A DNA stretch of 64,000 nt, taken from contig DATJTG010000266.1 of NCBI GenBank assembly GCA_035503555.1, positions 1,280 to 65,279 on the forward strand. Reading direction: 5' to 3'. Origin of the DNA: Acidobacteriaceae bacterium (lineage in GTDB: Bacteria; Acidobacteriota; Terriglobia; Terriglobales; Acidobacteriaceae). Every line of letters begins with the position of its first letter. Within the stretch, counting starts at the first letter, position 1. The notes below the pieces were generated by a model. That model made no database searches and had not been told where the DNA came from. It saw only the letters and a program-made list of their open reading frames with translations. Shown in pieces: positions 291-60,598 of this stretch. The position numbers and the translations under genes were made by a program.

Positions 291-308
291 CGCTGGCCGC
301 AACCGCGC

Positions 309-5458: not shown

Positions 5459-5506
5459 TGGTCGTTTCCCTGCACCGAATGCAGAAATGCCTGCAGGCGC
5501 TTCTGT

Positions 5507-16858: not shown

Positions 16859-17106
16859 GGGTAAAAACAGGGTATAGCGGGTTGGCGGTGAGCGAGCAGG
16901 AGAATACGCGACGCGGCCATGTTGGTGTCCGGGAATGGACGACTGCGCTGGAAAGCGGACAATACGGTGCGTTCCTTCAGCGTTCGAGCAAGCTGCAACT
17001 ATCGATGCTTGCGAGAGTTGGCTCAGAGTTGCGGATGGCGCAAACCTTGCAGCTACGCTGGATGGCGAGGTCTGTTCAACAGTTCCTGACCGCGGAGGGA
17101 TGGGAC

Positions 17107-45732: not shown

Positions 45733-45733
45733 A

Positions 45734-46687
45734 TCAACCTCCGATTTGCACGCTGAAGCCGCATTGCCGCAGGCGTGCGGCGATCGACTCCATATGCTCG
45801 GCCGATGGTGGCTCGACCTTATCCATGCGGCTCGGCCTGCCCAGCCGCTCATATTTGCCGCCGCCGATGCGGTGGTAGGGAAGAAGATCGATCCGCGGCA
45901 GCCCCAGCGGCGAGAGGAATGCGCCCATCGCGTCGAGGTTCTCGCAATCGTCATTCACTCCTGGAACCACTGGCACGCGAACGATTACCGTTCGTCCCAG
46001 CCGGGCCAGCATTTCGAGATTCCGCAAAATACGCTCGTTCCCTGCTCCTGCAGCGTCCCTGTGCCGCTCACTATCCATCACCTTGACGTCGTAGAGAAAG
46101 AGATCGACGTTTGCCCTGATTCGGCGCAGAACATCGGCAGCGGCAAATCCGCTTGTTTCGACAGCGATGTGAATTCTCCGCTCGCGGCAACCCGCAAGCA
46201 GCTCCTCGACAAACTGTCCCTGCATCAAGGGTTCGCCCCCGGAAATCGTCACGCCTCCCCCCGACTCTTCGAAGAAGACGCGGTCCTTCAGCACCTCGTC
46301 CATCACTTCCGGCACGGTCATCCAGCGCCCGGCGAGCTGATGCGCTCCTGCGGGGCAAGCGTCCACGCAGGCTCCGCATTGCTGGCATCGATCGGCATCG
46401 CGAAGAACTCCCTCATCCAGAAGGAGAGCGCCGTGCGGGCAGGCGCGAACACAATCTCCGCAACGGATGCATCGCTCCGCGAACCAGCTGACCTCGGGCT
46501 CCATGTGCTGGCCCTCGGGATTGTGGCACCACCAGCAGCGCAGAGGACAGCCTTTCAGAAACACGGTCGTCCGGATGCCGGGTCCGTCATGCAGCGAGAA
46601 ACGCATGATGTTGAACACGAACCCCTTCACCGCTCCGGCGTGTCCAGTGGCAGGGAGTGTTGCGACGAAATCGGGAGGCACAGGCAT
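45734..46687 (-). CDS. Glycyl-radical-enzyme activating protein (radical SAM, with two ferredoxin-type clusters)
   Basis: FSLHDGPGIRTTVFLKGCPLRCWWCHNPE (CxxxCxxC). CIRCGDCVRACPHGA and CQQCGACVDACPAGA. GGEPL. The stop lies 1 nt before the GRE start. Confidence 0.9.
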   Translation of the reverse strand: MPVPPDFVATLPATGHAGAVKGFVFNIMRFSLHDGPGIRTTVFLKGCPLRCWWCHNPEGQHMEPEVSWFAERCIRCGDCVRACPHGALLLDEGVLRDADRCQQCGACVDACPAGAHQLAGRWMTVPEVMDEVLKDRVFFEESGGGVTISGGEPLMQGQFVEELLAGCRERRIHIAVETSGFAAADVLRRIRANVDLFLYDVKVMDSERHRDAAGAGNERILRNLEMLARLGRTVIVRVPVVPGVNDDCENLDAMGAFLSPLGLPRIDLLPYHRIGGGKYERLGRPSRMDKVEPPSAEHMESIAARLRQCGFSVQIGG

Positions 46688-46815: not shown

Positions 46816-47610
46816 TCAATCGGGCGGCGTCGGACTAAGTCGGGCGAGAACATGAATCCAGTAAGTCAGCGATGGCCGGTAGAAAGCCTCGTTGTGCGCT
46901 TGGTCCGGAACGATGACCAGCTCAGCTCTGGGATTGGAATACGCTGCGAGACGGTAAGCCATCGAGGTCGGGAAGGCGCGATCCTTGTCGCAGTGGACGA
47001 CGAGCACCGGTACCGCACAGCTCCGCAGCGAAATGGCGCCATCCCAGATGGCCGGGAGCGTGGCAGCCAGCGCGCGCGGCACGCCCAGTACCCGCGCAGC
47101 CTCTCGATACGATGTGAAAGCAGAACAGAGGATCAGGCGCTCGGCCGGAATGTGACCGGCGACGGCTGCGGCAATCCCGCCACCCATGGAGAAGCCCAGA
47201 ATGGACGCCGGTAACCCGGGCGTCAATGATCGCAGGTCATCGAACGCATCGACTGCGTTTTCTTCGCAGCGCCGCCAGTCGATCGGTCCCGGACTGCGGC
47301 CATAGCCCGAGTAATCGAAGACCAGCGACGCCACTCCATGCCGGGCAAGCAGAGTTTGCGCGGCAGTCCAATGATCCACGGTTTCGCCGATCCCGTGACA
47401 AATCAGGAGCGCGGCTTGCGCCGTTGACTCGGAAGGCTGAACGAACACCGCGTCGAGACCGCGACTCGAGAATACGTGTCGTTCGATCCGTGCCCCGCTG
47501 GTGGCCGCACTTCGGATCTTCTTCATTCTTCCCAACAGATGGTCGCGCAGGATCAGCATGCGGCTGATTACGGTGACCGAAATCGTGAAAAGACGATCCT
47601 GCGGCGGCAT
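46816..47610 (-). CDS. Alpha/beta-fold hydrolase
   Basis: HG oxyanion motif LLICHGIGET, nucleophile elbow GFSMGG, Asp in VHCDKDRAF and His in DQAHNEAF. Start is uncertain: 47610 was chosen (8 nt after the upstream stop), with 47649, 47559 and 47526 as alternatives. Confidence 0.75.
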   Translation of the reverse strand: MPPQDRLFTISVTVISRMLILRDHLLGRMKKIRSAATSGARIERHVFSSRGLDAVFVQPSESTAQAALLICHGIGETVDHWTAAQTLLARHGVASLVFDYSGYGRSPGPIDWRRCEENAVDAFDDLRSLTPGLPASILGFSMGGGIAAAVAGHIPAERLILCSAFTSYREAARVLGVPRALAATLPAIWDGAISLRSCAVPVLVVHCDKDRAFPTSMAYRLAAYSNPRAELVIVPDQAHNEAFYRPSLTYWIHVLARLSPTPPD

Positions 47611-47618
47611 GCGCGTCT

Positions 47619-49232
47619 CTATCCTCGCCCAATCGTACGACGCCACCATCGCGCTGGTTCCCGCGGTTGCTCACCCCCGGAAAGCAATCGGCGAAGGGTC
47701 ACATAGTCGATTTTTGCGTTGTGGCGCTTATCCAGGGGAATGGAGAACAGCACACGCACTTCATCCAGGCGCGCGTTCGGCAGCGCCTCGAGAATACGAG
47801 CCGCCGTCGCAGGGGAAACGAGCTCAACGGCGAGGATGCGGTGATCCCCGAGGCGCAGAACGGCGGCGCGCCGCACGCCGGGGATCTGCTGCGCCGCGCA
47901 CTCAACGGCAAACGGATAGAGAATGCCACGATCGTCCTCGATCTTCGCGGAGGCGCGGCCGAGCAGCCAGAGGCGTCCCCGCGAGTCCAGGCGACCGAGG
48001 TCGCCCGTGCGATGCCACCGCGTGCCTCCGACGTCGAACTTGGTCTCCGAATCTCCCACGCCGTTCAGATAGCCGGGCAGCACATGTGCACCAGAGACAG
48101 CGATCTCCCCAACCTCGCCCGGCGCGGCCCAAAGTGCGCGAAACTCCGCCTCGGTGAGCGGCGCAATCGGCCGGCCCCAGCCATCGCGAAGAATTCGCAG
48201 CGAGACGCTCGTAACTGGAGAGCCGGAGAGCAGGCCGTCGCCTCGCTCCATGGCCAGAAAATCGTCGGGCGAAATGGCGGAATAGTCGACTTCCGCCATC
48301 GGCTCGGCTTCAGTCGACCCATAAACCGCCGTAACCTCAGCGTTGGGGAAGGCAGTGCGGGCATCGCGCAGATCGCGTGGGAAAACCGGGGCGCCACCCA
48401 TGAAAACGTGCTGCACGCAGGGGATGCCGTGACCCGCCCGCGCGCACTTCTCGACGAGGCGGGCGATGAGCGCGGGCGACGCCCCAACGGTCTGGATTGC
48501 GTGCCGCTCGATCTGCGCAAGAACCGGCGCTGCATCGACGGCCCCGGGGCGACGGAGGTCGCAGTCGGGCAGAACGCTGGTAACGCCGGAAGCAAGATTG
48601 GCGAGTACGAAGATTGGCAGCGTGGTGAGGTCTACGACACCTGCGCGCAGGCCGATGGCCGACGCAATCGCTCGATGCTGCGCCAGCAGAAATCCATGCG
48701 AGCGAGCGGCCGCCTTCGGCTCTCCGGTGCTGCCTGAAGTGAACGTGACCAGTGCGGGTGCGGACTCGGAGAGACTGGCGATCTCCGCCCGAGCGCCGCT
48801 ATCGGAGATCGAAACGCGCACGGCGCCCGGAAAAAATCCCGGACACAATGCAAGGGGAACGCGGCGCAGCGGAGCCAGAGCCAGGCGCAACAGATGCGCC
48901 TTCGGGCTGCCGAAGAAGGCGCGGATGGGGAAGAGATCGCAGCAACGCGCGATATGCTGCCGCCCGGCGGATGGATCGAGAAACACCGCGACTGCGCCTG
49001 CGCGAAACACTCCCGTCAGGAAGGCGTACAGTTCAAGCGACATGCGATGCAGCACGAGAATGCCGTCGCCCGGAGCAACGCCGAGCGCGAGAATCTGTGC
49101 CGCGACGCGGGCTGCGGCTTCATCGAGTTCGCGAAAAGTGAGGACGCGATCGCGCCCCCCTCTCACGTCGATGATCGCCGGCGCCGCCGGTCTTTCAGCA
49201 GCGACCTCCGCGAAAGCCTCAGCGATATTCAC
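47619..49232 (-). CDS. Adenylate-forming enzyme (acyl-CoA / acyl-AMP ligase family)
   Basis: GTG start in a GTGA overlap with the upstream stop. AMP-binding motifs FTSGSTGEPKAA, YGSTEAEP and WHRTGDLGRLDSRGRLWLLGR. 537 aa. Confidence 0.85.
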   Translation of the reverse strand: MNIAEAFAEVAAERPAAPAIIDVRGGRDRVLTFRELDEAAARVAAQILALGVAPGDGILVLHRMSLELYAFLTGVFRAGAVAVFLDPSAGRQHIARCCDLFPIRAFFGSPKAHLLRLALAPLRRVPLALCPGFFPGAVRVSISDSGARAEIASLSESAPALVTFTSGSTGEPKAAARSHGFLLAQHRAIASAIGLRAGVVDLTTLPIFVLANLASGVTSVLPDCDLRRPGAVDAAPVLAQIERHAIQTVGASPALIARLVEKCARAGHGIPCVQHVFMGGAPVFPRDLRDARTAFPNAEVTAVYGSTEAEPMAEVDYSAISPDDFLAMERGDGLLSGSPVTSVSLRILRDGWGRPIAPLTEAEFRALWAAPGEVGEIAVSGAHVLPGYLNGVGDSETKFDVGGTRWHRTGDLGRLDSRGRLWLLGRASAKIEDDRGILYPFAVECAAQQIPGVRRAAVLRLGDHRILAVELVSPATAARILEALPNARLDEVRVLFSIPLDKRHNAKIDYVTLRRLLSGGEQPREPARWWRRTIGRG

Positions 49233-50224
49233 TGTGCAATCTCCCGGCTGAAAAGGGCATAGCGGCGCATGACCGAGCCGTAGCGAAGGCTGGTGTTCAG
49301 CGATACGTTCTTCTCATGCATCAGCGCGTGGATGCACCGGCGGAATCCGAGACGCGATCCTTCCTGCTGTACGCGCTCGGCCATGAGCGCGCCGAGGCCG
49401 GCGAGCGCGGGGTCAGGCAGAATGGCGAGGGTTTTGAGGAGGAACGTATCGATAGGCTCCCCGCGTGCTGCCTGCGCCAGATCAGGAATCGCAAAGGTGA
49501 ATCCCACAAGATCGTTGCCACGCTCAGCGAGCAAAAGAAGCTCGGGGCGCAAGTACGGCACGATCTTCTCGTACTGCGCGAGGAAGTCGGCCTGCGGCAA
49601 CTCGGTATAGAGGAAATTGTGCGCGAATGCGACCTGGCTGAGCCGATAGATGCGGACCAGGTCAGTCTGCAGCTCGGGGAGGCGAATCGCTCGAATGCGC
49701 ACGCCGAGCCTGTCCATGCGCACAGCCACCCGCAGAACACGAGAATCCTTCTGTGTCAGGTCGCTGTTCAGCGCCGAAACATACTGCGCGAAGGGCGTGA
49801 AGCCTGCGCGCTGCCACTGGGTCGGCCATTCCGGCGCGTTGGTCGGTTCCAGGAAGAACGGCGGCTCGCCGCCGGCCTCGACTACGAAGCGATAGCGTCT
49901 CCACGTATTGCCATCCATGGGGCCGATAGCGAGCGTGCAGCCTTGTTCCGCAAGAACACCAAGCGCGGCGGCAAGCAGACGCGCCGCGGCCTCGTCGCTG
50001 GCGCTGGCATAGTGGCCGATCACTCCAACCCTTTGCGATCCGTAGCGCGGACTGTTGGTCCACCAAAGCGATGCCTGCGCTTCGACGATTTCCGCGTCGG
50101 ATACCGCGCAGAGGTGCAGGTCAGGCCGTTGAGAGGCGAGGAGTGTCGCGTCGAACGGAGGCAGATCGGGCGTGTTGGGCAGGGTGCCGCGCTCGCCCGG
50201 AGTGTGCAGCGTCTTCACGATCAC
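49229..50224 (-). CDS. GNAT-like (double acyl-CoA N-acyltransferase fold) protein, tentative
   Basis: 331 aa. Two halves each carry a GNAT-like beta-alpha-beta segment (..VGVIGHYASASDEAAARLLAAALGVLAEQG.. and ..LAILPDPALAGLGALMAERVQQEGSRLGFRR..). GTGA overlaps at both ends. Confidence 0.45.
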   Translation of the reverse strand: MIVKTLHTPGERGTLPNTPDLPPFDATLLASQRPDLHLCAVSDAEIVEAQASLWWTNSPRYGSQRVGVIGHYASASDEAAARLLAAALGVLAEQGCTLAIGPMDGNTWRRYRFVVEAGGEPPFFLEPTNAPEWPTQWQRAGFTPFAQYVSALNSDLTQKDSRVLRVAVRMDRLGVRIRAIRLPELQTDLVRIYRLSQVAFAHNFLYTELPQADFLAQYEKIVPYLRPELLLLAERGNDLVGFTFAIPDLAQAARGEPIDTFLLKTLAILPDPALAGLGALMAERVQQEGSRLGFRRCIHALMHEKNVSLNTSLRYGSVMRRYALFSREIAQ

Positions 50225-51558
50225 AGCAGGCTGGCGACTCCCGCGCCGATCAGAGTGAAGAGAAATCCAATGGACGACTGATAGAGCCAGCGCCGGCCGC
50301 TCAGAGAATACTGTCCTGCTCTGCGTGGCTCAACGATGCAGAAGGCGGCAAAGGCAATGCCGGAGAGTGCGAGAGCGATCGCGGATTCGACAATCGAGCG
50401 GCGCGCGAAGCGCTGCTCGATCGCCACCGGCACGAAGATCAGCAGCCAGCTTTGCAGCACCAGCACCGGGCCGAACTTCCAGATGTTGCGCTCGGGATGA
50501 TGGAAGCAGCTCAGGGTCCAGGCAAGCAGTGCGAGCTGAATCGCATAGCCCAGCGCGTAGGGGAACAGCAGCGTATCGCCACGCTTGGCCTGCGCCAGAA
50601 AGATCCAGAACAGCCCTGAAGATGCGACGCTGAGCACCGCAAAGACATTGTGCGTGCGATCGCCGCGCAGCAGCCGCCCAGGAAAGAAAAGCGTGTAAGT
50701 GACAAAGAGCGTGGCGGGGGCAAGCAGCCACCGCCATCCGCCCAGCCCCCAGGAAATGTAGAGCACCAGAGCCGACGCGATCAGCGCGCTGGTGGCGAGA
50801 GTGGTACGCGAACGATAGAGCAGAACGAAAATCAGCAGGGCCAGGGCCACCGCAAAGCGTGCGAGCAGCCGTTCCATCGGCATGGCTGTGTAGATGTGAA
50901 GAAGGATGAAAACTCCAAAAGGGATAAACACGTTGTCGAGGCCGCGCCACGCGATGGCTTCGAGCAGAGTGACCACCAGCGCGATATCGGCGGCGATCAG
51001 CAGCGTTTCCGGTCGCCCCAACGGCGTAAAGAGCAACAGTGGCACATGCACGCTCAGGAAGGCCACGGTGAAGAAACCGACCGAACCCTCCATGCTCTTG
51101 GAGCCATCAATGCCAGCGTAGCCGTGCTTGCCGTACTGCTCGCCCAGCAGGGCAGCGACGCTGTCGGCGAGGGTGAGCACCAGGATGGGAATGGCATAGA
51201 GAAGTCGGTTGCCCCGCGCGAGGACAAAAAGGATCGCGACTGAAGCAGGAAAGTAGACATCGCCGCGAGACTTGCGTCCGACGCCATGCAGCACCTGCGC
51301 GAAATACGCCTGGACGGGTGGGTAGTACTGCACCACAAGCATGAGAGCTGCAGCCAGCGCGCAGACGAGCCCGACGGCCCACGGCGACGAGAATATCCAC
51401 GGAAACGATAGCGCTAAAAATCCCGTGCCCACATGTGCAAGTTTGCGAACCTGTTCCGGCGTGAGCGGAAGCCAGGGCTTGACGAGCCGCAGGACGAGCA
51501 GCAGAAGTACGACGACGCCAAGAACGCCGAAGACGCGGAGAAGATCGCCCACGGTCAT
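50221..51558 (-). CDS. Polytopic membrane protein with N-terminal CTP-transferase-1 / dolichol(phytol)-kinase-like domain
   Basis: About 12 predicted hydrophobic helices. LADSVAALLGEQYGKHGY...GSKSMEGSVGFFTVAFL resembles the C-terminal signature of the CdsA/dolichol-kinase/phytol-kinase family. The C-terminal half is an extra multi-TM module. Confidence 0.55.
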   Translation of the reverse strand: MTVGDLLRVFGVLGVVVLLLLVLRLVKPWLPLTPEQVRKLAHVGTGFLALSFPWIFSSPWAVGLVCALAAALMLVVQYYPPVQAYFAQVLHGVGRKSRGDVYFPASVAILFVLARGNRLLYAIPILVLTLADSVAALLGEQYGKHGYAGIDGSKSMEGSVGFFTVAFLSVHVPLLLFTPLGRPETLLIAADIALVVTLLEAIAWRGLDNVFIPFGVFILLHIYTAMPMERLLARFAVALALLIFVLLYRSRTTLATSALIASALVLYISWGLGGWRWLLAPATLFVTYTLFFPGRLLRGDRTHNVFAVLSVASSGLFWIFLAQAKRGDTLLFPYALGYAIQLALLAWTLSCFHHPERNIWKFGPVLVLQSWLLIFVPVAIEQRFARRSIVESAIALALSGIAFAAFCIVEPRRAGQYSLSGRRWLYQSSIGFLFTLIGAGVASLL

Positions 51559-52646
51559 CGCACCTGCTCCACGACGAAGGCGCTGTAGAAGAAGGCCTTG
51601 TCCCTGCGAAAGAGAGCCGCGCTCAAATCGGCGAGCGGATCAAGAAGCGCCACCATCGACTGCGGACGGCTGCGCGGCGCCAGCATGTTCCAGTAGGCAA
51701 GCCGCGCCGCGGGACGCGACGCCGCGACGATGAGGCGCAGAAGCTGCTCGTAGGCCTGCGGTGCCATGTACTCGAAGATATCGGAGAGGTTGAAGCAGTC
51801 GAATTTCTCAGGCCCGTCGAGAGCCTCCTCGAGGGCGCAGCAGCGCCACTCCAGCGCGTCGAGATTGCGGCGGATCGCTTCGAAATTCTCTTCACGCAGC
51901 GCAAATGGCAGAGCGGCGCCATGGGTTCCGAGCATGATCCATTGGAGGTAGGGATTCTCCGCCGGGGCAAGTTCCGTCATAGCGTACCGGGCGCGAGCCA
52001 GAATACGGTCGGCCACGCTGCCCTCCACGTAGCGAAAAAATTCCGGATCGCGGCCCAGCGCGCCCATCACGCGGCGCGAGAAAAAGAACCGGAAGAAGAG
52101 CCTCCAGCGGAAGTTATTCCACTCACCGTCATGGAACGCAACGCGTTCCGGCAAAGACCGTGGCGCAAAAAGAGATTCGACGCGCGAGCCGCCATGCACC
52201 AGCGGAAGGACGCGCGTCCGAAACGCAGCAAAATAGCGCTCGAATTTCCCCGCGCTGCCGAGTCCGCCTTCGAGCAGGGCCTTGTGGTCATCCCAGAAGG
52301 CGATGGCCGTTCGCGAGAGGCGGGTGCGGCACGCTTCGTAAAGACGCAGGCGGCGATCGCTGCGGCGCGAGCCCATCAGCGCCAGAAGATCGGGATAATC
52401 CAGCACACGATACGCCGCAACGCGCAGATCCAGGCACGCAAGCTGCGCAGGGCTCAGATCGACAGCGAGCACGCGCTCGGGCGCGCGCGCAAGGAACGCG
52501 AGCGTGTTGTCTCCCGCGCTCGCAATCGACAGGCACCGCTTGCCCGGCCCCGGTGCGAGCGCCTCCAGGAGAATGTCGGCATCTTCCCAGCATTGTGCAT
52601 AGCGAATGCCGGAGAAATCGGCACGCTCGGCGGCCTCGCTACGCAT
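51555..52646 (-). CDS. BtaA-like / DUF3419-family SAM-dependent (3-amino-3-carboxypropyl-transferase-like) protein
   Basis: IRYAQCWEDADILLEAL followed by CLSIASAGDNTLAFL (SAM-binding-loop-like) and the NLSDIFEYM region, as in the BtaA/DUF3419 family. Start 52646 chosen (8-nt overlap with the upstream stop). The ORF extends to 52703. Confidence 0.75.
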   Translation of the reverse strand: MRSEAAERADFSGIRYAQCWEDADILLEALAPGPGKRCLSIASAGDNTLAFLARAPERVLAVDLSPAQLACLDLRVAAYRVLDYPDLLALMGSRRSDRRLRLYEACRTRLSRTAIAFWDDHKALLEGGLGSAGKFERYFAAFRTRVLPLVHGGSRVESLFAPRSLPERVAFHDGEWNNFRWRLFFRFFFSRRVMGALGRDPEFFRYVEGSVADRILARARYAMTELAPAENPYLQWIMLGTHGAALPFALREENFEAIRRNLDALEWRCCALEEALDGPEKFDCFNLSDIFEYMAPQAYEQLLRLIVAASRPAARLAYWNMLAPRSRPQSMVALLDPLADLSAALFRRDKAFFYSAFVVEQVR

Positions 52647-55281
52647 GCGGCTCCTCGGCAGACAATCGGCGGATCGTGCCATGTGCGCCATCCAGCTCGA
52701 CAAGATCGCCGTCGCAAAGCCACGCGGTCAGGCCGGGGATGGATACCACGGCGGGGATGCCGAGCTCGCGCGCGACGATTGCAGAGTGCGATAGCAGGCT
52801 GCCTCGCTCCACCAGCAGGCCCGCAGCTGCGGGAAAGAGCATGATCCATCCCGGATCGGTGTGGTCGGCTACGAGGATGCATCCAGCGGGCAGCTGTGCG
52901 TTGCGCGGATCGCGGACGACGCGGACTTTTCCACGGACGACGCCCGGGCAGCACCCGATTCCGCGCCGAGCGTCTCCGGTTGCATCTGCCGCCACGGGCT
53001 GCACAAGGGGCTGATAGGTCTGAGCGACATAGACCATGCCGCGCGTCTCGAAGCGTTCCGCGGGTGGCGGCGTGTTGCGGTACAAGTCGAATTCGGATTT
53101 GCGCAGCGCCGCGAGCGCGCGAACGTCCGCTGTCACCGCGGTCCCCGCAACCAGTGCCACCACTTCGTCCGTCTCCAGATAGAAAATATCCCGCGGATCG
53201 TCGAGCGTGCCGTTCGCATGCAGCCGCTTGCCTGCCTCGAGGAAGATGCGCCGAATCCGGCCAAAGAGCCGCGTTCGCTCGAAGCGCAGATTCTCGCGCT
53301 CGCGAACACGCCGGCGTGCAATGCGCAGCACCCAGCCAAGAGCAAGCTGTTTGACAGGCGAGCCCCGCAGCTTTATACGGATCGTCGGCATCGCATCAGC
53401 GGCCATTCCGGGAGTCGAGGAATGGTCCGAACCTGGTCCCGCTCGCGCAAGCTCGCCGATGCTGCGCAGCAGCACGACAGGATTCTCGTAAAGGGCTTCG
53501 CTCTCGAGTTTCAGCTCTTCTAGGCAGCGGTCGCCAAATTTCGCCAGATACGCGTCGTAGAGGGAGCAGAACTCCGGGCGCTGGCGAATCGCACGGACAG
53601 CCTCGGCGGCGGACTGGTCGCACAACGCGCGCACCAGGTCCGGATCCCTTTTCGCCAGAGCCGCCATTTCCCGCACGCGTGCCGCCGGCTCGGCGCTGAC
53701 CATTCCGCCTCCGCCGCGAATCGCGTCGTTCGCGAGCATGCCCCGCTCATCGCCGCACCACGCCATCGTGAGCTTACGCAGCACGCCATGAAAGATCATC
53801 GCGAAGAAGTCATTGGAGAGCGGTGCGTCCCAGCGTGTGCCCAGCTCGCGCTGAAGCGACTCGAAATGCGCTGTAAGCTCATCCAGACGCATGCGCGCCA
53901 GCGGCGGCGCCGGCTCCGCGAGTGCTGATGCGAGGCGCGCGTGGAAGCGCCGAATTTGTGCCTCCAGAGTTACGTAATTCCACGCGAGGCCGGCTGCCAT
54001 CGCGGCAACGTGTATCGAGTCGATCATTCGATCCCGGAATGTGGCAGCTTTTCCTGTGCCGAGCGCTTGCTCGGGCAGGCTTTCGCGCACGCCCATCATC
54101 TGCTCCATGAACCGGCGATTGATGGTGAATCCCGGCAGCAAGGCAAGCGCGCGGTACCAGTTGAGCAGGTTGTAGTACACCCGGCCCCGAATGAGCCCCA
54201 GCATGTTGCGGAACACAGGATCGTTCGCGGCGAGCGTACGCTCCGGAACGCGCAGGATCCGGCAAAACTGCCGATAGACGCTCTCGTAGCTCGAGCGTGC
54301 AAACGAAAACGTGAGCGGAGTGGTGATGCCGCTATAGCTCTCGACGATGTTGCTGTTGTCCCACAGATTCAGCGCGCCGTCCGGATCGGCCAGCGCGCGC
54401 AGCGTCGTAATCGGACGCGACTGGAGCAGAAAAAGCTCACCATTCTGCACAGCCCACTCGATGTCCTGGGGCTGGCCGAATGCGGACTCCGCGGCCCTTG
54501 CGAGCGCGGCAACCTCGACGGCGCGCTCGTCGGAAAGAGCGGGCTCCTGCTGCCGATCGGCGGGGACTGAAAAGGCGGAGAAGTTTTCCGGAGATTGGTC
54601 ATCGAACCGGTGACAAATAGACTTGTTCGCCACAGTCTGGCGCTCAATGCGGCCGCTTCGGTCGATGGCCCAGGTATCCGCATCGGCGTCACCGCCAACC
54701 AGCGCCGTGCCGATGCCGTAGACCGCGGAAACGACTGCAAGGCCGCGCCGGCCGCTGACAGGATCGGCGCTGAACGCCACGCCGGAGCATTCCGCGTCGA
54801 CCATGCGCTGGACGAGGACCGCCGGCGCGGACGGAGATCCCGACAATCCCCGCTGGCGCCGATATTCCATCAATCGATCGCCGAATCCCGACCGCCACAC
54901 GGCGGCGACCCGATCGAGGACTGCGTCGCCATCGACAAAGAGATAGCTTTCGAGCTGTCCTGCGAACGAACTTTCCGCACCATCCTCGTCGATCGCAGAG
55001 GAACGAACCGCAAAGCGGATCCCAGGAGAAGCGATAGCGCAGAGGGCGGCTTCTATTCCGGCAGCAACTTCAGGCGCGACGCGGAGCGATGTCAGGGCTG
55101 CGGAATCGAGGGCGCCCGACGCAAACAGTTCCTGCTGTTCTTGGGTGAGACTCTGTTTGAATGCTTCAGGCGTAACTGCGAACCAATCCGGAACACGGAT
55201 GTCCGCGGCGGCGAGACGCGCAAGGGCGAAGGCCTTGCCGCCCAGCTCGCGGAGGCTCCCGCTGCGCAGCACGCAGTTCAC
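52639..55281 (-). CDS. PEP/pyruvate-binding (PPDK_N, ATP-grasp) + PEP-utilizer swivel-His domain phosphotransferase (PEP-synthase / rifampicin-phosphotransferase-like architecture)
   Basis: GTG start in a GTGA overlap. N-terminal LRELGGKAFALARL...VPDWFAVT...FAVRSSAIDEDG.. (PPDK_N). C-terminal ILVADHTDPGWIMLFPAAAGLLVERGSLLSHSAIVARELGIPAVV (mobile His domain). 880 aa with a roughly 400-aa central region of unknown fold. Confidence 0.85.
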   Translation of the reverse strand: MNCVLRSGSLRELGGKAFALARLAAADIRVPDWFAVTPEAFKQSLTQEQQELFASGALDSAALTSLRVAPEVAAGIEAALCAIASPGIRFAVRSSAIDEDGAESSFAGQLESYLFVDGDAVLDRVAAVWRSGFGDRLMEYRRQRGLSGSPSAPAVLVQRMVDAECSGVAFSADPVSGRRGLAVVSAVYGIGTALVGGDADADTWAIDRSGRIERQTVANKSICHRFDDQSPENFSAFSVPADRQQEPALSDERAVEVAALARAAESAFGQPQDIEWAVQNGELFLLQSRPITTLRALADPDGALNLWDNSNIVESYSGITTPLTFSFARSSYESVYRQFCRILRVPERTLAANDPVFRNMLGLIRGRVYYNLLNWYRALALLPGFTINRRFMEQMMGVRESLPEQALGTGKAATFRDRMIDSIHVAAMAAGLAWNYVTLEAQIRRFHARLASALAEPAPPLARMRLDELTAHFESLQRELGTRWDAPLSNDFFAMIFHGVLRKLTMAWCGDERGMLANDAIRGGGGMVSAEPAARVREMAALAKRDPDLVRALCDQSAAEAVRAIRQRPEFCSLYDAYLAKFGDRCLEELKLESEALYENPVVLLRSIGELARAGPGSDHSSTPGMAADAMPTIRIKLRGSPVKQLALGWVLRIARRRVRERENLRFERTRLFGRIRRIFLEAGKRLHANGTLDDPRDIFYLETDEVVALVAGTAVTADVRALAALRKSEFDLYRNTPPPAERFETRGMVYVAQTYQPLVQPVAADATGDARRGIGCCPGVVRGKVRVVRDPRNAQLPAGCILVADHTDPGWIMLFPAAAGLLVERGSLLSHSAIVARELGIPAVVSIPGLTAWLCDGDLVELDGAHGTIRRLSAEEPHA

Positions 55282-56198
55282 GGATGCCTCCAGTAGCGGA
55301 GGGCGATCGGAATGACGCCGAGGCTGAGATAGAGAATAAGGCTCCAGACGCCGCCAATCGTTTCGAGGGACTTGCCCCGTCCAGGCACTTCCGCGGCAAG
55401 GAAGCGCGCGCCCAGCACGGCTGAGATCAGGACCAGCGTGCCGAGCAGAAACGTAGCAGTCAGGCTGAAAGCAATCCCCCGCGCGGCCTCAATGGCAAAG
55501 ACGGCGGTGAGCGTCATCACCACAAGCCAGACGCCGACTGCCCTCTTCCTCCCCCACAGGAAGCTATAGGTTTCCACGCCCGCTTCCTCGTCGGAGGGAG
55601 TACGAATCTTGCGGCCAATTTCAAGCACAACGCCGTTGCAATAGCTCACCAGCAGAAACCAGAGCAGTCCGCGGGGCGGCCGCCGGTAACCGAGCGGAAC
55701 CCAGTCGCACGCCGTGGTGTAGAGATCCACCAGCGGCATGATGGCCATGTGCGACAGCATGTAGGTGATGGGCCGCGACTTCAGCCACGAGCGCAGAAAG
55801 AACTCGCGGCTCATCAGGCCGAGGTAGGTCCACGTAACCACGAGCAGCGGAACTAAACGCGGCGACAACCATGCCGCAAGCAGGAGTTGCAGCACGATGC
55901 ACGCGGCCCAGATCCACGCCAGCTCCCGCAGCTGGATCAGGCCTCTGGGCACGGGGCGATACGGACGGAAACGCGAGTCCTCGTCAAAGTCCTTGAACTC
56001 ATCGGCGAGGCGAAGCTGCAGAAACGTGAGAAACGAGTTGGCGAAAGCGACGAAGCACGGCTTCCAGCCGGGCAGCGCTGAGGCTCCGCGGAGGAGCGCG
56101 GAATAACTGACGGCGGAGAGGCTGAACGCAAGGATGATGGGTGAGTGAGCAAAGATGGGAAAGCGTTCGCGCTGGTACACCCACCAGCGGTTAGCCAT
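55278..56198 (-). CDS. UbiA-family prenyltransferase (integral membrane)
   Basis: Trimmed to MANRWWVYQRERFPIF. First Asp-rich motif LRLADEFKDFDEDSRFRPYRPVPRGL. Second acidic motif region EIGRKIRTPSDEEAGVETYSFLWG. About 8 TM helices. Confidence 0.8.
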   Translation of the reverse strand: MANRWWVYQRERFPIFAHSPIILAFSLSAVSYSALLRGASALPGWKPCFVAFANSFLTFLQLRLADEFKDFDEDSRFRPYRPVPRGLIQLRELAWIWAACIVLQLLLAAWLSPRLVPLLVVTWTYLGLMSREFFLRSWLKSRPITYMLSHMAIMPLVDLYTTACDWVPLGYRRPPRGLLWFLLVSYCNGVVLEIGRKIRTPSDEEAGVETYSFLWGRKRAVGVWLVVMTLTAVFAIEAARGIAFSLTATFLLGTLVLISAVLGARFLAAEVPGRGKSLETIGGVWSLILYLSLGVIPIALRYWRHP

Positions 56199-57486
56199 GG
56201 CTTTCTCCCCCGCCGGATTCGCGTCCCCGCGCCCGCTTGCGATGCGCTCGCGTAAAGTCACCGGAAGCCAGCGCGGCCGCAATTGAGAGCTCGCCCGCAA
56301 GTGCTAGGGCACCGCAAAGCTCGGCGAGCGCCCGCGCCTTGCCTTCACCTGCCATGCCGAGAATGTCGAGGCAGGCCCGTTGGCTCGGAAGCCCCGTGCC
56401 CCCGCCGACGGTCCCCACGACGATACTCGGCAAGGTGACGGCGGCATAGAGATCGCCGGATGCGGTGACCTCGAAGCGCGTGACGCCGACCGAAGACTCC
56501 GCAACGCAGGCGGGATCCTGACCGCAGGCGATGTAGAGGGCCGTAAGCGCGTTGGCAAAGTGACCCTGAATGCCGATGCTGCCGCTCTGGATCGCCCCCA
56601 GCGACGATATGCGCCAGTAGCGCTCCATCTGCTGTGGAGTGGAGTGCAGCCGATCCCGGATCAGATCCGCGGGGAGAGTGATCTCAGCCGAAACTTTCTT
56701 GCCGCGCACCGTCACGAACGAGTGCGCGGTCGCCTTCTTATCGCCGGAGAGATTCGCCTCAACGCAGTAAAACTCCGGTGCAATCGGCGAATTGGCCGCA
56801 ATGTAATCGCAAATGGCCTGCGTGGCGATCGTCACCATGTTCTGGCCCGAAGCATCGCCTGTGGTGTACTCGAGGATCAGATAGACGTGGTTGCCCTCGA
56901 TGGCAATGCCCAGATCGATTAGCTCGCCGTGCGTGGTCGTGGCGCCCGCGGCCTTGCTCAGCGCTTCACGCTGGTCGATGCACCAGATGGCAAAGATGCC
57001 CGCTTCGCGCAGGGAGTGAAAAGCAAATCCAGGCGTGCGTCGCATGCCCTCGTGCAGCAGGATGCTCACGCATCCGCCGGCCTCGGTGATGACCTGGCAT
57101 CCGCGTGAGTAGGAGGCAACGAGCGCCGCTTCGGTAGTCGCCAGCGGCACGTAGAAATCGCCAGAGGCGAACATGCCGCGCGTGCGCAGCGGCCCGGCCA
57201 GCCCAACCGGAACGCGTACCGCTCCGATCAGGTTCTCAATGTTGTTCTGGTAGTGTTCGGCTTCTGCAGCCGTGTGCGGGTCGAGCAGTTCCTGCCGGAC
57301 AGTTTCCGGCAGATTCAGCAACTGCCAGCGCCGGTCGAGCGCCGCCGGAGATACGGATCCCGCTCCCGGGACGCGCGGCGGCAGCGGCTTGGCCTCGCCG
57401 ACCAGCGACTGCGCGATGGCCAGCGCCGACCTGTCGCGGAGGAGGCGTCGCAGGAATTTCCCGATCCTCTCCTCGGTGCTCGCCAT
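56191..57486 (-). CDS. Class-I-type hydroxymethylglutaryl-CoA reductase homolog (soluble, orphan)
   Basis: Trimmed to MASTEERIGKFL. ENLIGAVRVPVGLAGPL, TTEAALVASYSRG, DASGQNMV and GTVGGGTGL correspond to the conserved HMGR catalytic-domain motifs. No other mevalonate-pathway gene is in the window. Confidence 0.85.
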   Translation of the reverse strand: MASTEERIGKFLRRLLRDRSALAIAQSLVGEAKPLPPRVPGAGSVSPAALDRRWQLLNLPETVRQELLDPHTAAEAEHYQNNIENLIGAVRVPVGLAGPLRTRGMFASGDFYVPLATTEAALVASYSRGCQVITEAGGCVSILLHEGMRRTPGFAFHSLREAGIFAIWCIDQREALSKAAGATTTHGELIDLGIAIEGNHVYLILEYTTGDASGQNMVTIATQAICDYIAANSPIAPEFYCVEANLSGDKKATAHSFVTVRGKKVSAEITLPADLIRDRLHSTPQQMERYWRISSLGAIQSGSIGIQGHFANALTALYIACGQDPACVAESSVGVTRFEVTASGDLYAAVTLPSIVVGTVGGGTGLPSQRACLDILGMAGEGKARALAELCGALALAGELSIAAALASGDFTRAHRKRARGRESGGGESHG

Positions 57487-58097
57487 GGGCCTCTGCCAAG
57501 CCTCCGCTCGTTCCAGACGTTGACCCCGATTCGCGAAACGGTTATGAAACCATTCGCTGCCACGGCAGGCCGGCGACACGCCTCTGCTGGTTCATGTGTG
57601 GGTCTCAGATGGCCGGAACTGACCAGGATTGTATCCTGCTCAAATTTGCCGGCATAGACTCCTTTGCCGACTTGCCACCGGGGAGGAAGCAACCTGATCC
57701 ATTTCCTGGCCAAAGTCTCGACTCGCGACGGATGTCCACTTCCCTCGAACTTCATCGGAACCGCGGCTGCGCCAACCTGCGGGTTGTCGCACTCATGCAC
57801 GAGCGATTCACAAATCGTCGAAACGGGGATGGATTCCTGGGTACGCGGCCGGAATTACGTCACACCGATCGTGTGCACCTCCTGCCGTGAAGCTTGCGGC
57901 CACGGACGAACGCGCTTCCCACAATCAGTCAGGCCTTCGTGCCCGTACCGGCTCATCGGAGTTCAATGTTCTGCGCGGCGGTGCGATCGGCAACCGACAG
58001 CGCGATCGAAGACATACGGCGGTGTTATCGCTTCTGAGCGGAAATAGCGCAGGATACGGAACTTGCAGGCAAACCTGACGGGGGGATTGAGGGGAGA

Positions 58098-59507
58098 TCA
58101 GCGCAGACGCCAGTGCACTCCGTCGCTACTGATCCAAACAGCGCCGTCGGTGGAGGTGAGCTCGAAGAGCGGCGGCGTTGTTCTGGAGGGTTCCGCCTTG
58201 TGGAGGGCCGCACTCACTCCCGGCTCGGCCAGGCCCAGGTGCGCGATGGAACCAGACCAAACGGGCGGGACTTTCTTCCATTTCCGCCCCCCATTACGGC
58301 TGAGGAAGAGCGTGCCGGCCGTGTCGAGCGCGAGAATGCGTCCGCTACGCACGACCGTTGTGGTCGCCGGGAGCCTGCCGGGCAACACGGGAACAAGAGC
58401 CGCGAGCCGAGCGTCGGCAGAGTGCGTGTTCGTCGGGATATCGGTTGCGGCAGCGCTGACCTCGACGGACGCTGCGGAGGAGCCCACTTGCAGCGCCGGA
58501 GAAAGCGAAGCCAGGTCGCCTCCCTGAAGATCGAAGCGCTCCGTGTCTGTTCTGAATCCCGGGGCGCTAATTTGCAGTTGGTACTGGCCAGGCGTTACCG
58601 ACGGCAACTCAAATCTGCCGGATTGATCCGTGCTTGTCGTAGCGGCTGTGGCTCCCGATATAGCACGCAAAGTCACAGACGCTCGAGCAATGATCGCTCC
58701 CGATGGATCGGTGACCGTGCCGTGAATTGCGGAGGAACTTTTGTTCGGGTTCTGATTGTGTTCGATGGTGAGGTGCGCGGAGCGGGCGGAATTGAGGAAT
58801 CCGTTCTGCGGTACAGCTCGCGCCAGCGCCCCATCGGCTCCTGGAACGGCGAGTTGATTGTGCGGCGCCATGGCTGCAGAGCCGACGGCCTTGTTCGTTG
58901 CCAGAGGCGATGGTTCCGTGCCGCTCACCTGCGGAGCTCCTCGCGCCTGATCTCGAGCCACCATGGAAGCGCTCTCTTTTGCGGATAGTTGTTCCGCCGG
59001 AGCTTCGGATCTGGATGTGACCCTGCCGAGCGCTTCCTGTGGAGCAGCGGGAGGGCGGGGCGGGGGCGGGGGAGGGGCCGCCCTCCTGTCGTTGCGCTCG
59101 TGGTGCGAGCCAGCAAGCAGAGCGGTCCGCGTTGGTGCAGCCTCCGGAGCAGGCGCGGCAACCGGTTGGTGCAGCGGCACGGCCGGATGGACGACGGCGG
59201 CCGTACTCGTTGAGGGAGTAGCAGCGGGGTGCGGATGCATCCTCAGAATGGCAACGAGGACGCAAGCGGCGGCAGCAGTTGCAAGCGAGAGCGGCGGCAG
59301 CCAGCGCCGCCCGGCGGGCACTGCCGGAGGCTGGACCGGTGGGACAGGAACCGCATCCTGCGCCAGAAAGACAATGCGCCGGCATTCCTCGCAGGCTGCC
59401 AGATGCGTAAGGCAATCCTGCCGTTCCCGTTCGGTCAGGACGCCCTCCATGAAGGCATTGAGCCGATCAGCGTCAGGATGCGATAAGGAATGGAGGTGTT
59501 CGCTCAT
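58098..59507 (-). CDS. Anti-sigma factor (zf-HC2) with TM helix, Pro/Ala-rich linker and CarboxypepD_reg-like extracytoplasmic domain
   Basis: N-terminal ..LNAFMEGVLTERERQDCLTHLAACEECRRIV (HxxxCxxC). TM segment WLPPLSLATAAAACVLVAIL. IHGTVTDPSGAIIARASVTLR...QSGRFELPSVTPGQYQL. The start overlaps the sigma gene stop by 4 nt. Confidence 0.75.
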   Translation of the reverse strand: MSEHLHSLSHPDADRLNAFMEGVLTERERQDCLTHLAACEECRRIVFLAQDAVPVPPVQPPAVPAGRRWLPPLSLATAAAACVLVAILRMHPHPAATPSTSTAAVVHPAVPLHQPVAAPAPEAAPTRTALLAGSHHERNDRRAAPPPPPPRPPAAPQEALGRVTSRSEAPAEQLSAKESASMVARDQARGAPQVSGTEPSPLATNKAVGSAAMAPHNQLAVPGADGALARAVPQNGFLNSARSAHLTIEHNQNPNKSSSAIHGTVTDPSGAIIARASVTLRAISGATAATTSTDQSGRFELPSVTPGQYQLQISAPGFRTDTERFDLQGGDLASLSPALQVGSSAASVEVSAAATDIPTNTHSADARLAALVPVLPGRLPATTTVVRSGRILALDTAGTLFLSRNGGRKWKKVPPVWSGSIAHLGLAEPGVSAALHKAEPSRTTPPLFELTSTDGAVWISSDGVHWRLR

Positions 59508-60598
59508 GCTCGATTCTGGCCTGTCTGTTGAAGGAACGGAGAACCCGATGTAGTTTGCAGCAGATTCCGCAAATTCACCGTGAGGTCGCGCGGGTCGGTG
59601 CCGAGGGCTTCCTGCGCGGCGCGGCGACGCAACCCGCCGGCTTCGAGCTCTTTCAATAGCTGTCGATGCAGATCGCCGGTAAGGCGTCGAATTCGACGGC
59701 TGATGGTGGCCTCATGCACGTGCAGCAGACGAGCCAAATCGAGCAGGGTGCGCTCGTCGAGAAAATACGCTGTCAGCAAAAAACGATTTTCTGCTGAAAG
59801 GCTGCGCAGGATCGGGGTAAGCGCGCTGCTCAGACGCTCCAGGGTCTGTGGATCTGGCTGCGGCGCCGAAACCGGAGCGGGAATCTCGTCACCCTCCAGC
59901 TCGGTCTCGCGGCGCGTAACGCGATGGCGGTCGACCTGACGCTGCGCGAGCGTGGCGCGCAGCCATCCCATCAGCGATCCCCGCCCCGAGTACGTAGTGA
60001 GCGGCGACCAGCGCCAGCCGTCGCGCTCCGTCAGTCCGAAAAGCTCAGAAAAGAGCGAATCGGCAAGCTCTTCGCCTTCGGAGGCTGATCGGGTGATGGC
60101 GACGGCCGCTTCGCGCAGAGGCGCGCGAAACTGGGCCACGAAGCGCTCCCAGGCCGCATCTCTGCCTCGCGCGCAGCCATGTGCCAGAGCAAGGTCGCGA
60201 AGATGCAGGGCTCGCCAAAATCCGGCCCGCTGCGCTTCATTCGTTACTGTTCCTGGCGGCGCGCCGAAATTCGATTTCGCTCCCGCGGAAAGGAGCACCT
60301 CCGCGAATTCTGATTCCGAAAGGCCGCTGAAACGAAGATCCGCCTGGCTCGACAATGCAAGCAGCAGTTTCACTGAAAGACCAGGAGTTTCCCGCAACGA
60401 AGAACTGCCGCTGGGCGCGGCCGAAACCACCGCGGAACCGGCGGCTTCAGTGCCGGACGAGGAAGCGGCTGCGCCGGGATCGGCGGATTGTGACGGCCCG
60501 GAATCCACGGTTTCCCCTACGCTATACCAACCTGCACGCGGCAGCACAGGCGCTTCCCAGCCCGTAGTATTGACTTTTTCCCGCCCGAGCGATTTCAT
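59504..60598 (-). CDS. ECF-type sigma-70 family factor with long N-terminal extension
   Basis: Region 2-like AWERFVAQFRAPLREAAVAI...ADSLFSELF. Region 4 HTH LLDLARLLHVHEATISRRIRRL. About 150 aa of low-complexity Ser/Ala-rich sequence precede region 2, and the true start is uncertain. Confidence 0.7.
   Translation of the reverse strand: MKSLGREKVNTTGWEAPVLPRAGWYSVGETVDSGPSQSADPGAAASSSGTEAAGSAVVSAAPSGSSSLRETPGLSVKLLLALSSQADLRFSGLSESEFAEVLLSAGAKSNFGAPPGTVTNEAQRAGFWRALHLRDLALAHGCARGRDAAWERFVAQFRAPLREAAVAITRSASEGEELADSLFSELFGLTERDGWRWSPLTTYSGRGSLMGWLRATLAQRQVDRHRVTRRETELEGDEIPAPVSAPQPDPQTLERLSSALTPILRSLSAENRFLLTAYFLDERTLLDLARLLHVHEATISRRIRRLTGDLHRQLLKELEAGGLRRRAAQEALGTDPRDLTVNLRNLLQTTSGSPFLQQTGQNRA

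Follow-up and report, generated by a model that had tools for sequence, protein, structure and literature searches.

In the Acidobacteriaceae bacterium assembly GCA_035503555.1, a 64,000-nucleotide (nt) stretch of contig DATJTG010000266.1 (positions 1,280 to 65,279 of the forward strand; hereafter, the window) carries eight minus-strand open reading frames (ORFs) in head-to-tail order, spanning window positions 46816 to 57486 (Table 1). All eight had been described in an earlier note made from the sequence alone, which took them for an operon led by an orphan HMG-CoA reductase (HMGR). At the start codons chosen in that note, each frame closes with a single terminal stop, and the lengths of the products agree with those of the orthologues in the related locus L081 (429, 306, 887, 363, 445, 335, and 526 amino acids, or aa, in the same order). 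Six junctions are start/stop overlaps that read exactly as previously reported, namely, ATGGCTAA between the reductase and UbiA genes (56191-56198), GTGA between the UbiA and dikinase genes (55278-55281), the 8-nt overlap ATGCGTAG between the dikinase and DUF3419 genes (52639-52646), ATGA between the DUF3419 and membrane-protein genes (51555-51558), and GTGA both between the membrane-protein and GNAT genes (50221-50224) and between the GNAT and ligase genes (49229-49232). The junction between the ligase and hydrolase genes depends on the start of the latter, with the ATG at 47649 giving a 31-nt overlap and the ATG at 47610, which follows GAGGA, an 8-nt gap. We tentatively read the locus as a bacterial lipid-biosynthesis operon, with a modest chance that it specifies a truly new ether-lipid route.

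Table 1. Features of the minus-strand operon and its leader, in transcription order (window positions; HMGR, HMG-CoA reductase; SAM, S-adenosylmethionine)
Feature	Coordinates	Strand	Basis
Putative FcrA-type acyl-CoA reductase (class I HMGR homologue), 431 aa, first gene	56191..57486	-	PF00368, pocket residues
Divergent UbiA-family membrane transferase, 306 aa	55278..56198	-	PF01040
Rifampin-phosphotransferase-like ATP-dependent dikinase, 880 aa	52639..55281	-	PPDK_N + PEP-utilizers
DUF3419 (BtaA-superfamily) protein, predicted SAM-dependent transferase, 363 aa	51555..52646	-	PF11899
Polytopic membrane protein, 445 aa	50221..51558	-	Weak orthologue matches to CTP-dependent lipid kinase/cytidylyltransferase clan
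Tandem-GNAT acyltransferase, 331 aa	49229..50224	-	AlphaFold2 fold
Adenylate-forming ligase (fatty-acid CoA ligase-like), 537 aa	47619..49232	-	PF00501
Alpha/beta hydrolase, 277 aa (264 aa from ATG 47610)	46816..47649	-	Abhydrolase_1, Hydrolase_4
Non-coding leader, 611 nt, up to upstream anti-sigma-like gene	57487..58097	-	ORF gap

A one-genome-per-species collection covering 185,579 species was scanned with a profile of the GNAT protein, which returned 423 related loci; the locus counts given below cover the best 80 of these, and the counts of complete gene sets cover the 53 with enough flanking sequence. In 49 of the 53, a span of no more than 9 kb holds in collinear order, all on one strand, the genes for the UbiA protein, the dikinase related to rifampin phosphotransferase (Rph), the DUF3419 protein, the membrane protein, the GNAT, and the ligase. 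This six-gene arrangement is far beyond chance and, together with the six overlaps, bears out the view that the locus is one tightly coupled biosynthetic unit. The reductase gene leads in 32 of the 49 complete loci and is absent from all seven loci of the Blastocatellia and from some of those of the Acidobacteriaceae; masking was rejected as an artefactual cause of its absence, as these loci hold no runs of N and the position in L007 is taken by an unrelated gene. A homologue of the hydrolase was found in L001, the closest relative of the window, and in no other of the best 80 loci; the alpha/beta hydrolase is a lineage-specific eighth gene. The eight-gene set previously held to be conserved is thereby pared down to six genes, joined in about two-thirds of the loci by the reductase, with the hydrolase confined to the window and L001. 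The cluster is spread over more than ten phyla, its hosts including Acidobacteriota (several classes), Cyanobacteriota, Verrucomicrobiota, Gammaproteobacteria, Chloroflexota, Planctomycetota, Gemmatimonadota, Armatimonadota, and Methylomirabilota. Five loci come from metagenome-assembled genomes labelled Klebsiella (L010), Coriobacteriia (L035), Clostridia (L042), Akkermansia muciniphila (L052), and Heliobacteriaceae (L080), whose cluster proteins are 45 to 55% identical to acidobacterial ones; the labels may result from mis-binning and need not name the actual hosts.

The reductase scores 365.6 bits against the Pfam HMG-CoA_red family (PF00368) but falls below the HMGR equivalog model (TIGR00533, 330.8 bits versus a cutoff of 441.8). 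A profile of 18 cluster copies gave its best structural alignments with the class I HMGRs of M. thermolithotrophicus (6hr7) and human (1dq8). The catalytic residues Glu559, Lys691, Asp767, and His866 are kept in all 18 copies (E119, K250, D324, and H415 in the window), as are the equivalents of Arg590, Asp690, Lys692, His752, and Asn755. The position of Ser684, on the other hand, is Glu in every copy (E243 in the window), that of Lys735 is Met in 15, Ile in 2, and Val in 1 (I293 in the window), and that of Leu862 is an invariant Phe (F411 in the window). In HMGR, Lys735 binds the terminal carboxylate of HMG through a salt bridge, and Ser684 offers one polar contact (PMC9500038); all 18 copies have other residues at both positions. 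The same changes distinguish FcrA, a class I HMGR homologue that catalyzes the NADPH-dependent reduction of acyl-CoA of C14 and longer to fatty alcohol and that neither reduces HMG-CoA nor is inhibited by simvastatin: Ser684 becomes Glu, the salt-bridge lysine is replaced, and Leu862 gives way to a bulky residue (Grossi et al. 2025, PMC11948995). Since all three FcrA pocket changes are present, we file the lead enzyme as a putative FcrA-type acyl-CoA reductase, predicted to act on long-chain acyl-CoA. The orphan-HMGR assignment is thus abandoned, and, given this signature and the sub-cutoff TIGR00533 score, the argument that the earlier note had built on mevalonate or isoprenoids falls with it. 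FcrA is often found in genomes lacking a wax synthase, for which ether-lipid synthesis has been suggested as an outlet, and the FcrA paper makes no mention of UbiA, DUF3419, or kinase partners (PMC11948995). That paper prints the salt-bridge lysine of human HMGR as Lys795, for which PMC9500038 and the 1dq8 alignment give Lys735.

The wider family of the reductase suggests how its product might be used. A HMMER search with the window protein retrieved 3,622 representative proteins at an E value of at most 1e-3, the top 150 of which are mostly of the non-canonical type. Pfam scans of the 78 long relatives (at least 470 aa) uncovered fusions to an APH, EcKL, or choline-kinase domain in about 26, to a PilZ-like N-terminal domain in 15, to an AMP-binding (adenylation) domain in 9, to a phosphopantetheine carrier domain in about 5, and to DUF3419 and an acyl-CoA-binding domain in 2 each. 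One such fusion, P0243, combines on a single polypeptide a reductase half 51% identical and a DUF3419 half 45% identical to the respective window proteins. The PilZ-scored N-terminal domain (P0270, P0277, P0280, and others) may be the beta-rich long-chain alkyl carrier (Lad) domain of FcrA or a genuine cyclic di-GMP-binding domain; a separate PilZ gene stands at the end of the cluster L097.

Several of these relatives belong to sister clusters, whose GNAT, UbiA, and ligase proteins are homologues of those in the window by pairwise comparison. L090 encodes a DUF3419-reductase-kinase fusion followed by UbiA and the Rph-like dikinase, and L091 an adenylation-reductase fusion followed by a formyltransferase, UbiA, the Rph-like dikinase, MMPL, and DUF3419. 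L092 combines a GNAT homologue on the opposite strand with a reductase-kinase fusion, MMPL, and the dikinase, while L097 sets an adenylation-carrier-reductase-kinase fusion before a CDP-alcohol phosphatidyltransferase, a 136-aa ORF, the dikinase, UbiA, and a CarS-like protein. The order in L100 and L101 is ligase, DUF3419, reductase, UbiA homologue, Rph-like dikinase, and FtsX/ABC exporter. Of the five sister clusters with a dikinase gene, four have UbiA no more than two genes away from it, three of them as its direct neighbor; in the fifth, L092, the stretch read holds no UbiA gene. Together, the fusions and sister clusters support the order acid, thioester, alcohol, phosphate ester, as well as the pairing of UbiA with the dikinase. 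They likewise support the idea that soluble kinase domains or a CarS-like protein can stand in for the kinase-like membrane protein, a CDP-alcohol transferase for DUF3419 (either would add a head group), and a formyltransferase for the GNAT (either would cap an amine). Elsewhere, at positions 9001-20709 of L098, a 902-aa adenylation-FcrA-like fusion sits in a cluster of the nonribosomal peptide synthetase (NRPS) type beside a condensation-adenylation protein, a thioesterase, an ATP-grasp protein, and an ABC/FtsX exporter, which suggests that FcrA-type reductases also occur in lipopeptide-like pathways.

The UbiA-family protein passes PF01040 (40.4 bits; cutoff, 34.2), and its first Asp-rich motif, D66xxxD70xxxD74, is invariant among 22 orthologues. 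Its closest solved structures are those of DGGGP synthase (6m31; E value, 7e-6) and chlorophyll synthase (E value, 3e-5). The dikinase matches PPDK_N (216 bits) and PEP-utilizers (81 bits) and, by Pfam, lacks the phosphoenolpyruvate (PEP)/pyruvate TIM-barrel domain; its architecture comprises ATP-grasp, substrate, and swivel-His domains, with the swivel motif SHSAIVARE in place. It scores 800 bits against NF004881 (cutoff, 883) and matches RedH, PigC, and Rph over the full length, although far under the equivalog cutoffs (321 versus 1350, 292 versus 1300, and 309 versus 999 bits, respectively). The best solved structures are those of the Listeria rifampin phosphotransferase (5fbs/5hv1, 227 bits), and the L081 orthologue carries the Rph-type middle domain Rph_4th of Pfam. 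With these results and those detailed below, Pfam confirms six of the families called earlier, namely, HMG-CoA_red, UbiA, PPDK_N/swivel-His, DUF3419, AMP-binding, and alpha/beta hydrolase.

The DUF3419 domain (PF11899, 218 bits, residues 28-378) spans the full length of the fourth protein, whose cluster orthologues are 47 to 73% identical across phyla. Identity is 27 to 29% to rhizobial DUF3419 genes and 23% to a btaA gene that adjoins btaB, the gene for a class I methyltransferase; neither btaB nor any other methyltransferase gene is present in the cluster. NCBIfam holds no usable BtaA model, and a gene annotated as btaA was likewise without a match. Because the identity to btaA is only 23%, homoserine transfer of the BtaA type is put forward here as a proposal rather than as a family membership: the DUF3419 part of the previous BtaA/DUF3419 call holds, whereas the BtaA part, at this identity and with no btaB in the cluster, is not supported. 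A different DUF3419 gene, 28% identical to that of the window, lies on the Rhizobium sp. plasmid pMK-2 (L087, 1-5155) in an operon with a CoF synthetase (adenylate-forming), an MBL-fold hydrolase, and an NAD(P) oxidoreductase; here, too, DUF3419 is combined with an adenylating enzyme in an uncharacterised setting.

The polytopic membrane protein, whose window copy is 100% identical to VME68_19675 of an Acidobacteriaceae metagenome-assembled genome, is placed mainly through its orthologues. Among 30 of them, 6 weakly match CTP_transf_1 (PF01148; best E value, 1.1e-5, with most scores under the gathering cutoff), and 4 weakly match DUF92 (PF01940, the VTE6 family); NCBIfam returned nothing for these 30, and the Joint Genome Institute (JGI) annotation names homologues "phytol kinase." The invariant residues (D132, G139, G143, K154, G158, E200, D208, N209, and P213) all fall in the N-terminal approximately 230 aa, while the C-terminal approximately 200 aa are variable, and 10 of the 30 lack the C-terminal half. 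The motifs D-x3-A-x3-G...K-S-x-E-G-S and G-L-D-N-x-x-I-P may be akin to those of VTE5 and dolichol kinase.

The 331-aa protein yields no Pfam match in its window copy. Its AlphaFold2 model (pLDDT, 82.7) recovers tandem GNATs by Foldseek at E values from 3e-13 to 1e-10 (the glucosamine N-acetyltransferase 5kga, MshD 1ozp, MAB_4324, and VipF), the Brevibacillus orthologue passes PF00583 with 43.6 bits, and PF00583 is precomputed for many homologues. The predicted tandem-GNAT fold and the Brevibacillus match agree with the earlier GNAT call. The ligase belongs to the AMP-binding family (PF00501, 169.6 bits), with its best NCBIfam match to the "fatty acid CoA ligase family" model NF006754 (358.5 bits, below the cutoff of 478); against the OleC models, it reaches 220 bits versus a cutoff of 900 and 172 versus 850. 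Its gene follows that of the GNAT in 71 of the 80 loci, and a single-frame fusion of the two occurs only in L066, other apparent fusions being artefacts of ORF extension. The hydrolase matches Abhydrolase_1 (69 bits) and Hydrolase_4 (66 bits). At the eighth position or beside the GNAT, 13 of the 80 loci and Brevibacillus have a cytochrome P450, with CYP4B1, CYP97A3, CYP102, and CYP170A1 as nearest solved relatives, lipid or isoprenoid hydroxylases among them; MMPL, PAP2, sulfotransferase, and MFS genes are also found among related loci.

The GNAT also occurs outside the full cluster. In Gammaproteobacteria, it forms a P450-GNAT-ligase trio in L028 and L030 and has only the ligase beside it in L072, and in Cyanobacteriota (L040, L043, L054, and L068), it apparently stands alone; the acylating module may have an independent life. 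Two further ideas about the cluster were discarded. One, an OleC/OleB-like formation of a beta-lactone from mevalonate by the ligase and hydrolase, meets with a non-conserved hydrolase, OleC scores far under cutoff, and a reductase that is not an HMGR. The other, an anhydromevalonyl siderophore made by HMGR, ligase, and GNAT (with FecCD genes beside the Brevibacillus cluster), fails on the same reductase and on the lack of a hydroxylase and of an NRPS or NRPS-independent siderophore synthetase gene.

Taking these findings together, we propose, with a rough probability of 0.45, that the genes form one operon for a membrane-bound amphiphile derived from fatty acids, that is, a fatty-alcohol-derived lipid with a probable amino-acid head group, made along a five-step route. 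First, the ligase would activate a long-chain fatty acid to its CoA thioester; second, the FcrA-type reductase would turn part of the acyl-CoA pool into fatty alcohol by a four-electron reduction. Third, the VTE5/dolichol-kinase-like membrane protein would phosphorylate the hydroxyl of this alcohol, probably with CTP, and the Rph-like dikinase would add a further phosphate, probably giving a diphosphate, or activate a partner. Fourth, the divergent UbiA enzyme would form an ether or ester bond between the activated lipid and an oxygen nucleophile. Fifth, the DUF3419 protein would add a group derived from S-adenosylmethionine (SAM), most likely 3-amino-3-carboxypropyl as in BtaA, and the tandem GNAT would N-acylate the resulting amine with a second acyl-CoA supplied by the ligase. 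The hydrolase here, and the P450, sulfotransferase, and MMPL/MFS/ABC exporters elsewhere, would serve lineage-specific tailoring or export.

Of these steps, the predicted first and second are strongly supported by a characterised homologue, diagnostic residues, and domain fusions. The third is suggested by the fusions and the domain swaps in sister clusters, and the role given to the dikinase follows from relatives that phosphorylate oxygen atoms on hydrophobic molecules. The fourth and fifth are proposed from family chemistry, and the sequence of events and the final structure are likewise proposals; an O-linkage is favored for UbiA because its nearest solved relatives, DGGGP synthase and chlorophyll synthase, form O-linkages. 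The route would yield a lipid that bears alkyl and acyl chains together with a head group of the amino-acid type; the P450, MMPL, PAP2, sulfotransferase, and MFS accessory genes are compatible with such a lipid, and a membrane lipid or lipid conjugate, as first suggested, is retained as the best reading. The product may be glycerol-free, given that no glycerol-phosphate acyl- or alkyltransferase was seen in any variant examined, and no gene of the locus suggests a glycerol backbone. According to lineage, it may also undergo hydroxylation, sulfation, hydrolysis, or export. The most specific form of the proposal, a glycerol-free alkyl ether lipid with an N-acylated SAM-derived head group that arises through FcrA, the kinases, and a re-tooled UbiA as a non-isoprenoid counterpart of archaeal ether-lipid assembly, is a good deal more speculative, and we regard it as doubtful.

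Several observations weigh against the proposed route. The main chemical objection concerns the fourth step: UbiA enzymes normally require an allylic diphosphate donor, and a saturated alkyl diphosphate would be an unprecedented one. The second motif of the UbiA protein is, moreover, non-canonical, as DxxxD is replaced by a conserved E193xxR196K197xR199...E204; the altered E193xxRKxR could be the sign of a different donor. The kinase assignment of the membrane protein is weak. The window copy has no Pfam or NCBIfam match, a profile search of the sequences in the PDB found nothing, and Foldseek of its full-length AlphaFold2 model gave nothing below an E value of 0.1. The possible likeness to the VTE5/dolichol kinase/CdsA/VTE6 clan concerns the N-terminal approximately 230 aa; of the CdsA/dolichol-kinase call made previously, the weak orthologue matches and the JGI name stand, while the window protein itself lacks a Pfam match. 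The DUF3419 protein may be a methyltransferase-like enzyme and not an aminocarboxypropyl transferase. As for the reductase, the window copy, with about 80 residues ahead of its catalytic domain, is devoid of the Lad domain of the assayed FcrA enzymes, although this N-terminal domain is found in certain FcrA enzymes and is not universal (PMC11948995). Finally, about one-third of the clusters lack the reductase and keep the kinase-like membrane protein; the alcohol, or the lipid moved by UbiA, may therefore come from elsewhere, for instance, as a polyprenol.

The most serious alternative leaves the enzymology unchanged and sees the product as an exported specialised metabolite (a biosurfactant, signal, or antibiotic of lipoamino-acid-like type) in place of a structural lipid. 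The cluster is patchy, with only 423 loci in 185,579 species scattered across phyla; one copy is carried by a 137-kb plasmid and another by a 1.4-Mb accessory replicon, variable tailoring genes (P450, sulfotransferase, and hydrolase) and exporters (MFS, MMPL, and FtsX/ABC) accompany it, and some Gammaproteobacteria have the P450-GNAT-ligase module by itself. Its uneven spread, its presence on a plasmid, and the exporters suit a secreted metabolite at least as well as a structural lipid and count among the points against the structural reading. Against such a metabolite stand the two polytopic membrane enzymes of the core and the swaps in sister clusters, where the CarS-like protein and the CDP-alcohol phosphatidyltransferase are classical membrane-lipid enzymes; MMPL proteins export envelope lipids too, the core holds no polyketide synthase gene, and an NRPS gene turned up in one sister cluster (L098). 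The membrane enzymes and phospholipid-type partners favor the structural lipid, and we hold the exported metabolite to be unlikely, if a contender.

Another alternative is a prenol salvage resembling the VTE5/VTE6/VTE2 route, in which the kinases would make polyprenol or phytol diphosphate for UbiA and the fatty alcohol would be only an acceptor, giving, for example, an O-alkyl-homoserine N-acylated by the GNAT. Such a scheme respects the allylic-donor rule, draws on the "phytol kinase" names and weak DUF92 matches, and accounts for the persistence of the kinase-like gene where the reductase is missing; the nearest UbiA relatives use geranylgeranyl or phytyl diphosphate, and the DUF3419-reductase fusion suits direct use of the alcohol by DUF3419. 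Yet about one-third of the long relatives have a soluble kinase domain fused directly to the reductase, and such domains replace the membrane kinase in L090 and L097, which argues that the reductase product is itself phosphorylated, and neither a polyprenyl-diphosphate synthase nor a phosphatase is conserved in the cluster; we rate prenol salvage as improbable. A true HMGR supplying mevalonate or a like unit for an isoprenoid conjugate, although consistent with the PF00368 score, the intact tetrad, the kept equivalents of Arg590, Asp690, Lys691, Lys692, and Asn755, and the adjoining UbiA gene, is very hard to sustain, as TIGR00533 is missed, both HMG-carboxylate contacts are replaced and Leu862 is Phe in the FcrA manner in all 18 copies, FcrA is inactive on HMG-CoA (PMC11948995), no other mevalonate-pathway gene occurs in the cluster across approximately 60 loci or in its flanks at any related locus, and the reductase gene is dispensable in one-third of the clusters.

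The proposed fatty-alcohol lipid route has parallels in several known systems, each of which it matches in part. With the FcrA/wax-ester pathway (FadD, FcrA, and WS/DGAT; PMC11948995), it shares the class I HMGR fold, the Glu/Lys/Asp/His set, the three pocket changes, and the pairing of the reductase with a fatty-acid CoA ligase; it differs in the lack of WS/DGAT and, in the window enzyme, of Lad, and in its partners, none of which that paper mentions: UbiA and DUF3419, the tandem GNAT, the Rph-like dikinase, and the putative CTP-transferase-clan protein. The pairing of a UbiA-family enzyme closest to DGGGP synthase with a membrane protein putatively of the CTP-transferase clan recalls archaeal ether-lipid assembly, as do the genuine CarS-like and CDP-alcohol transferase genes of L097. 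Unlike the archaeal system, the cluster has no genes for glycerol-1-phosphate dehydrogenase, GGGP synthase, or isoprenoid-chain synthesis, its predicted input is a fatty alcohol, and the second Asp-rich motif of its UbiA is replaced. In the BtaA/BtaB system for the betaine lipid DGTS, BtaA attaches the SAM-derived homoserine moiety to a lipid hydroxyl through an ether bond, and the DUF3419 enzyme is homologous to BtaA over its full length; at 23% identity to the btaA that sits beside btaB, it stands in a cluster without BtaB and without diacylglycerol-forming genes. The presence of a GNAT or formyltransferase in place of BtaB implies N-capping rather than N-methylation.

Phytol salvage by VTE5, VTE6, and VTE2, known from plants and cyanobacteria, likewise consists of two phosphorylations of a lipid alcohol followed by transfer by a UbiA-family enzyme, and cluster orthologues weakly match the Pfam families of both VTE5 and VTE6. 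Here, by contrast, the second kinase would be an Rph-type dikinase instead of a DUF92 protein, the alcohol is probably fatty and made in situ, and a pathway for an aromatic acceptor is missing. Rph and PigC/RedH drive the phosphorylation of a hydroxyl or carbonyl oxygen on a hydrophobic small molecule with ATP; the cluster dikinase has the same ATP-grasp/substrate/swivel-His architecture without the PEP/pyruvate domain but differs from them in being part of a biosynthetic operon, paired with UbiA, and below the equivalog cutoffs. With lipoamino acids, the cluster has in common the logic of a ligase and a GNAT. In the full-text literature, we found no published pathway that combines FcrA, UbiA/CTP-transferase, DUF3419, and ligase/GNAT logic, in line with the earlier statement that no characterised pathway has this combination of families; a "lipocone" paper and a paper on soil biosynthetic clusters, considered as descriptions of the cluster, proved to be false leads.

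Around the operon, the leader is the presumed site of the promoter. It matches no Rfam family at an E value of up to 1, with no riboswitch among the results, and contains neither a sigma-70-type consensus nor any promoter or terminator signal above chance. Upstream of the leader, 611 nt from the operon (58098-60598, minus strand), are genes for a zf-HC2 anti-sigma-like protein with CarboxypepD_reg and for a protein with a weak match to sigma-70 region 4; this neighborhood is not conserved at other loci, so that a regulatory link is only conjectural. On the other side, 128 nt downstream (43345-46687, minus strand), lie genes for a trans-4-hydroxy-L-proline dehydratase and its radical-SAM activase, an anaerobic hydroxyproline-degrading pair in which the glycyl-radical dehydratase scores 1285.8 bits against NF043068 (cutoff, 1100). 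As this pair is absent beside the cluster in all related loci, we place it outside the operon.

Two cultured bacteria carry the cluster. Brevibacillus laterosporus B9 (NZ_CP011076.1) has the seven genes along with a translationally coupled P450. In its locus (L084), where the reductase orthologue lies at 4317-5777, the cluster is preceded upstream by genes for an ABC ATPase and two FecCD permeases (201-3267); downstream, genes for an ETX/MTX2 pore-forming toxin and an AraC/GyrI-like regulator follow (16598-17551). PLSDB gave no annotation for this 25-kb stretch. In Roseinatronobacter sp. S2, the cluster is on a 137-kb plasmid (NZ_CP121116.1), where the reductase gene crosses the record origin, and its genes bear only generic PGAP/RefSeq names. 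Upstream on this plasmid (L085, and L086 at 851-5029), two GT2 glycosyltransferases, a WavE lipopolysaccharide-synthesis protein, and an HAD phosphatase are encoded in the same direction about 100 nt from the cluster, in this one genome only; in this host, the product may thus be glycosylated or associated with the envelope.

If the fatty-alcohol lipid route holds, several phyla, including the abundant soil Acidobacteriota, make an unassigned lipid or lipid-like metabolite through a pathway that mixes wax-ester reduction, archaeal-type UbiA/CTP chemistry, betaine-lipid head-group transfer, and lipoamino-acid N-acylation, parts previously known from separate pathways only. It would also give FcrA, a family described in 2025, a second major physiological context and, in the glycerol-free ether-lipid form, would amount to a new lipid class with a new biochemical formation of the alkyl ether bond. 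Such a lipid could explain unassigned ether-linked or amino-acid-bearing environmental lipids and would thereby bear on the interpretation of lipid biomarkers. The two cultured carriers, B. laterosporus B9 and Roseinatronobacter sp. S2, make the pathway directly testable. A systematic annotation error is also corrected, in that bacterial "HMG-CoA reductase" genes of this kind are no evidence for a mevalonate pathway.

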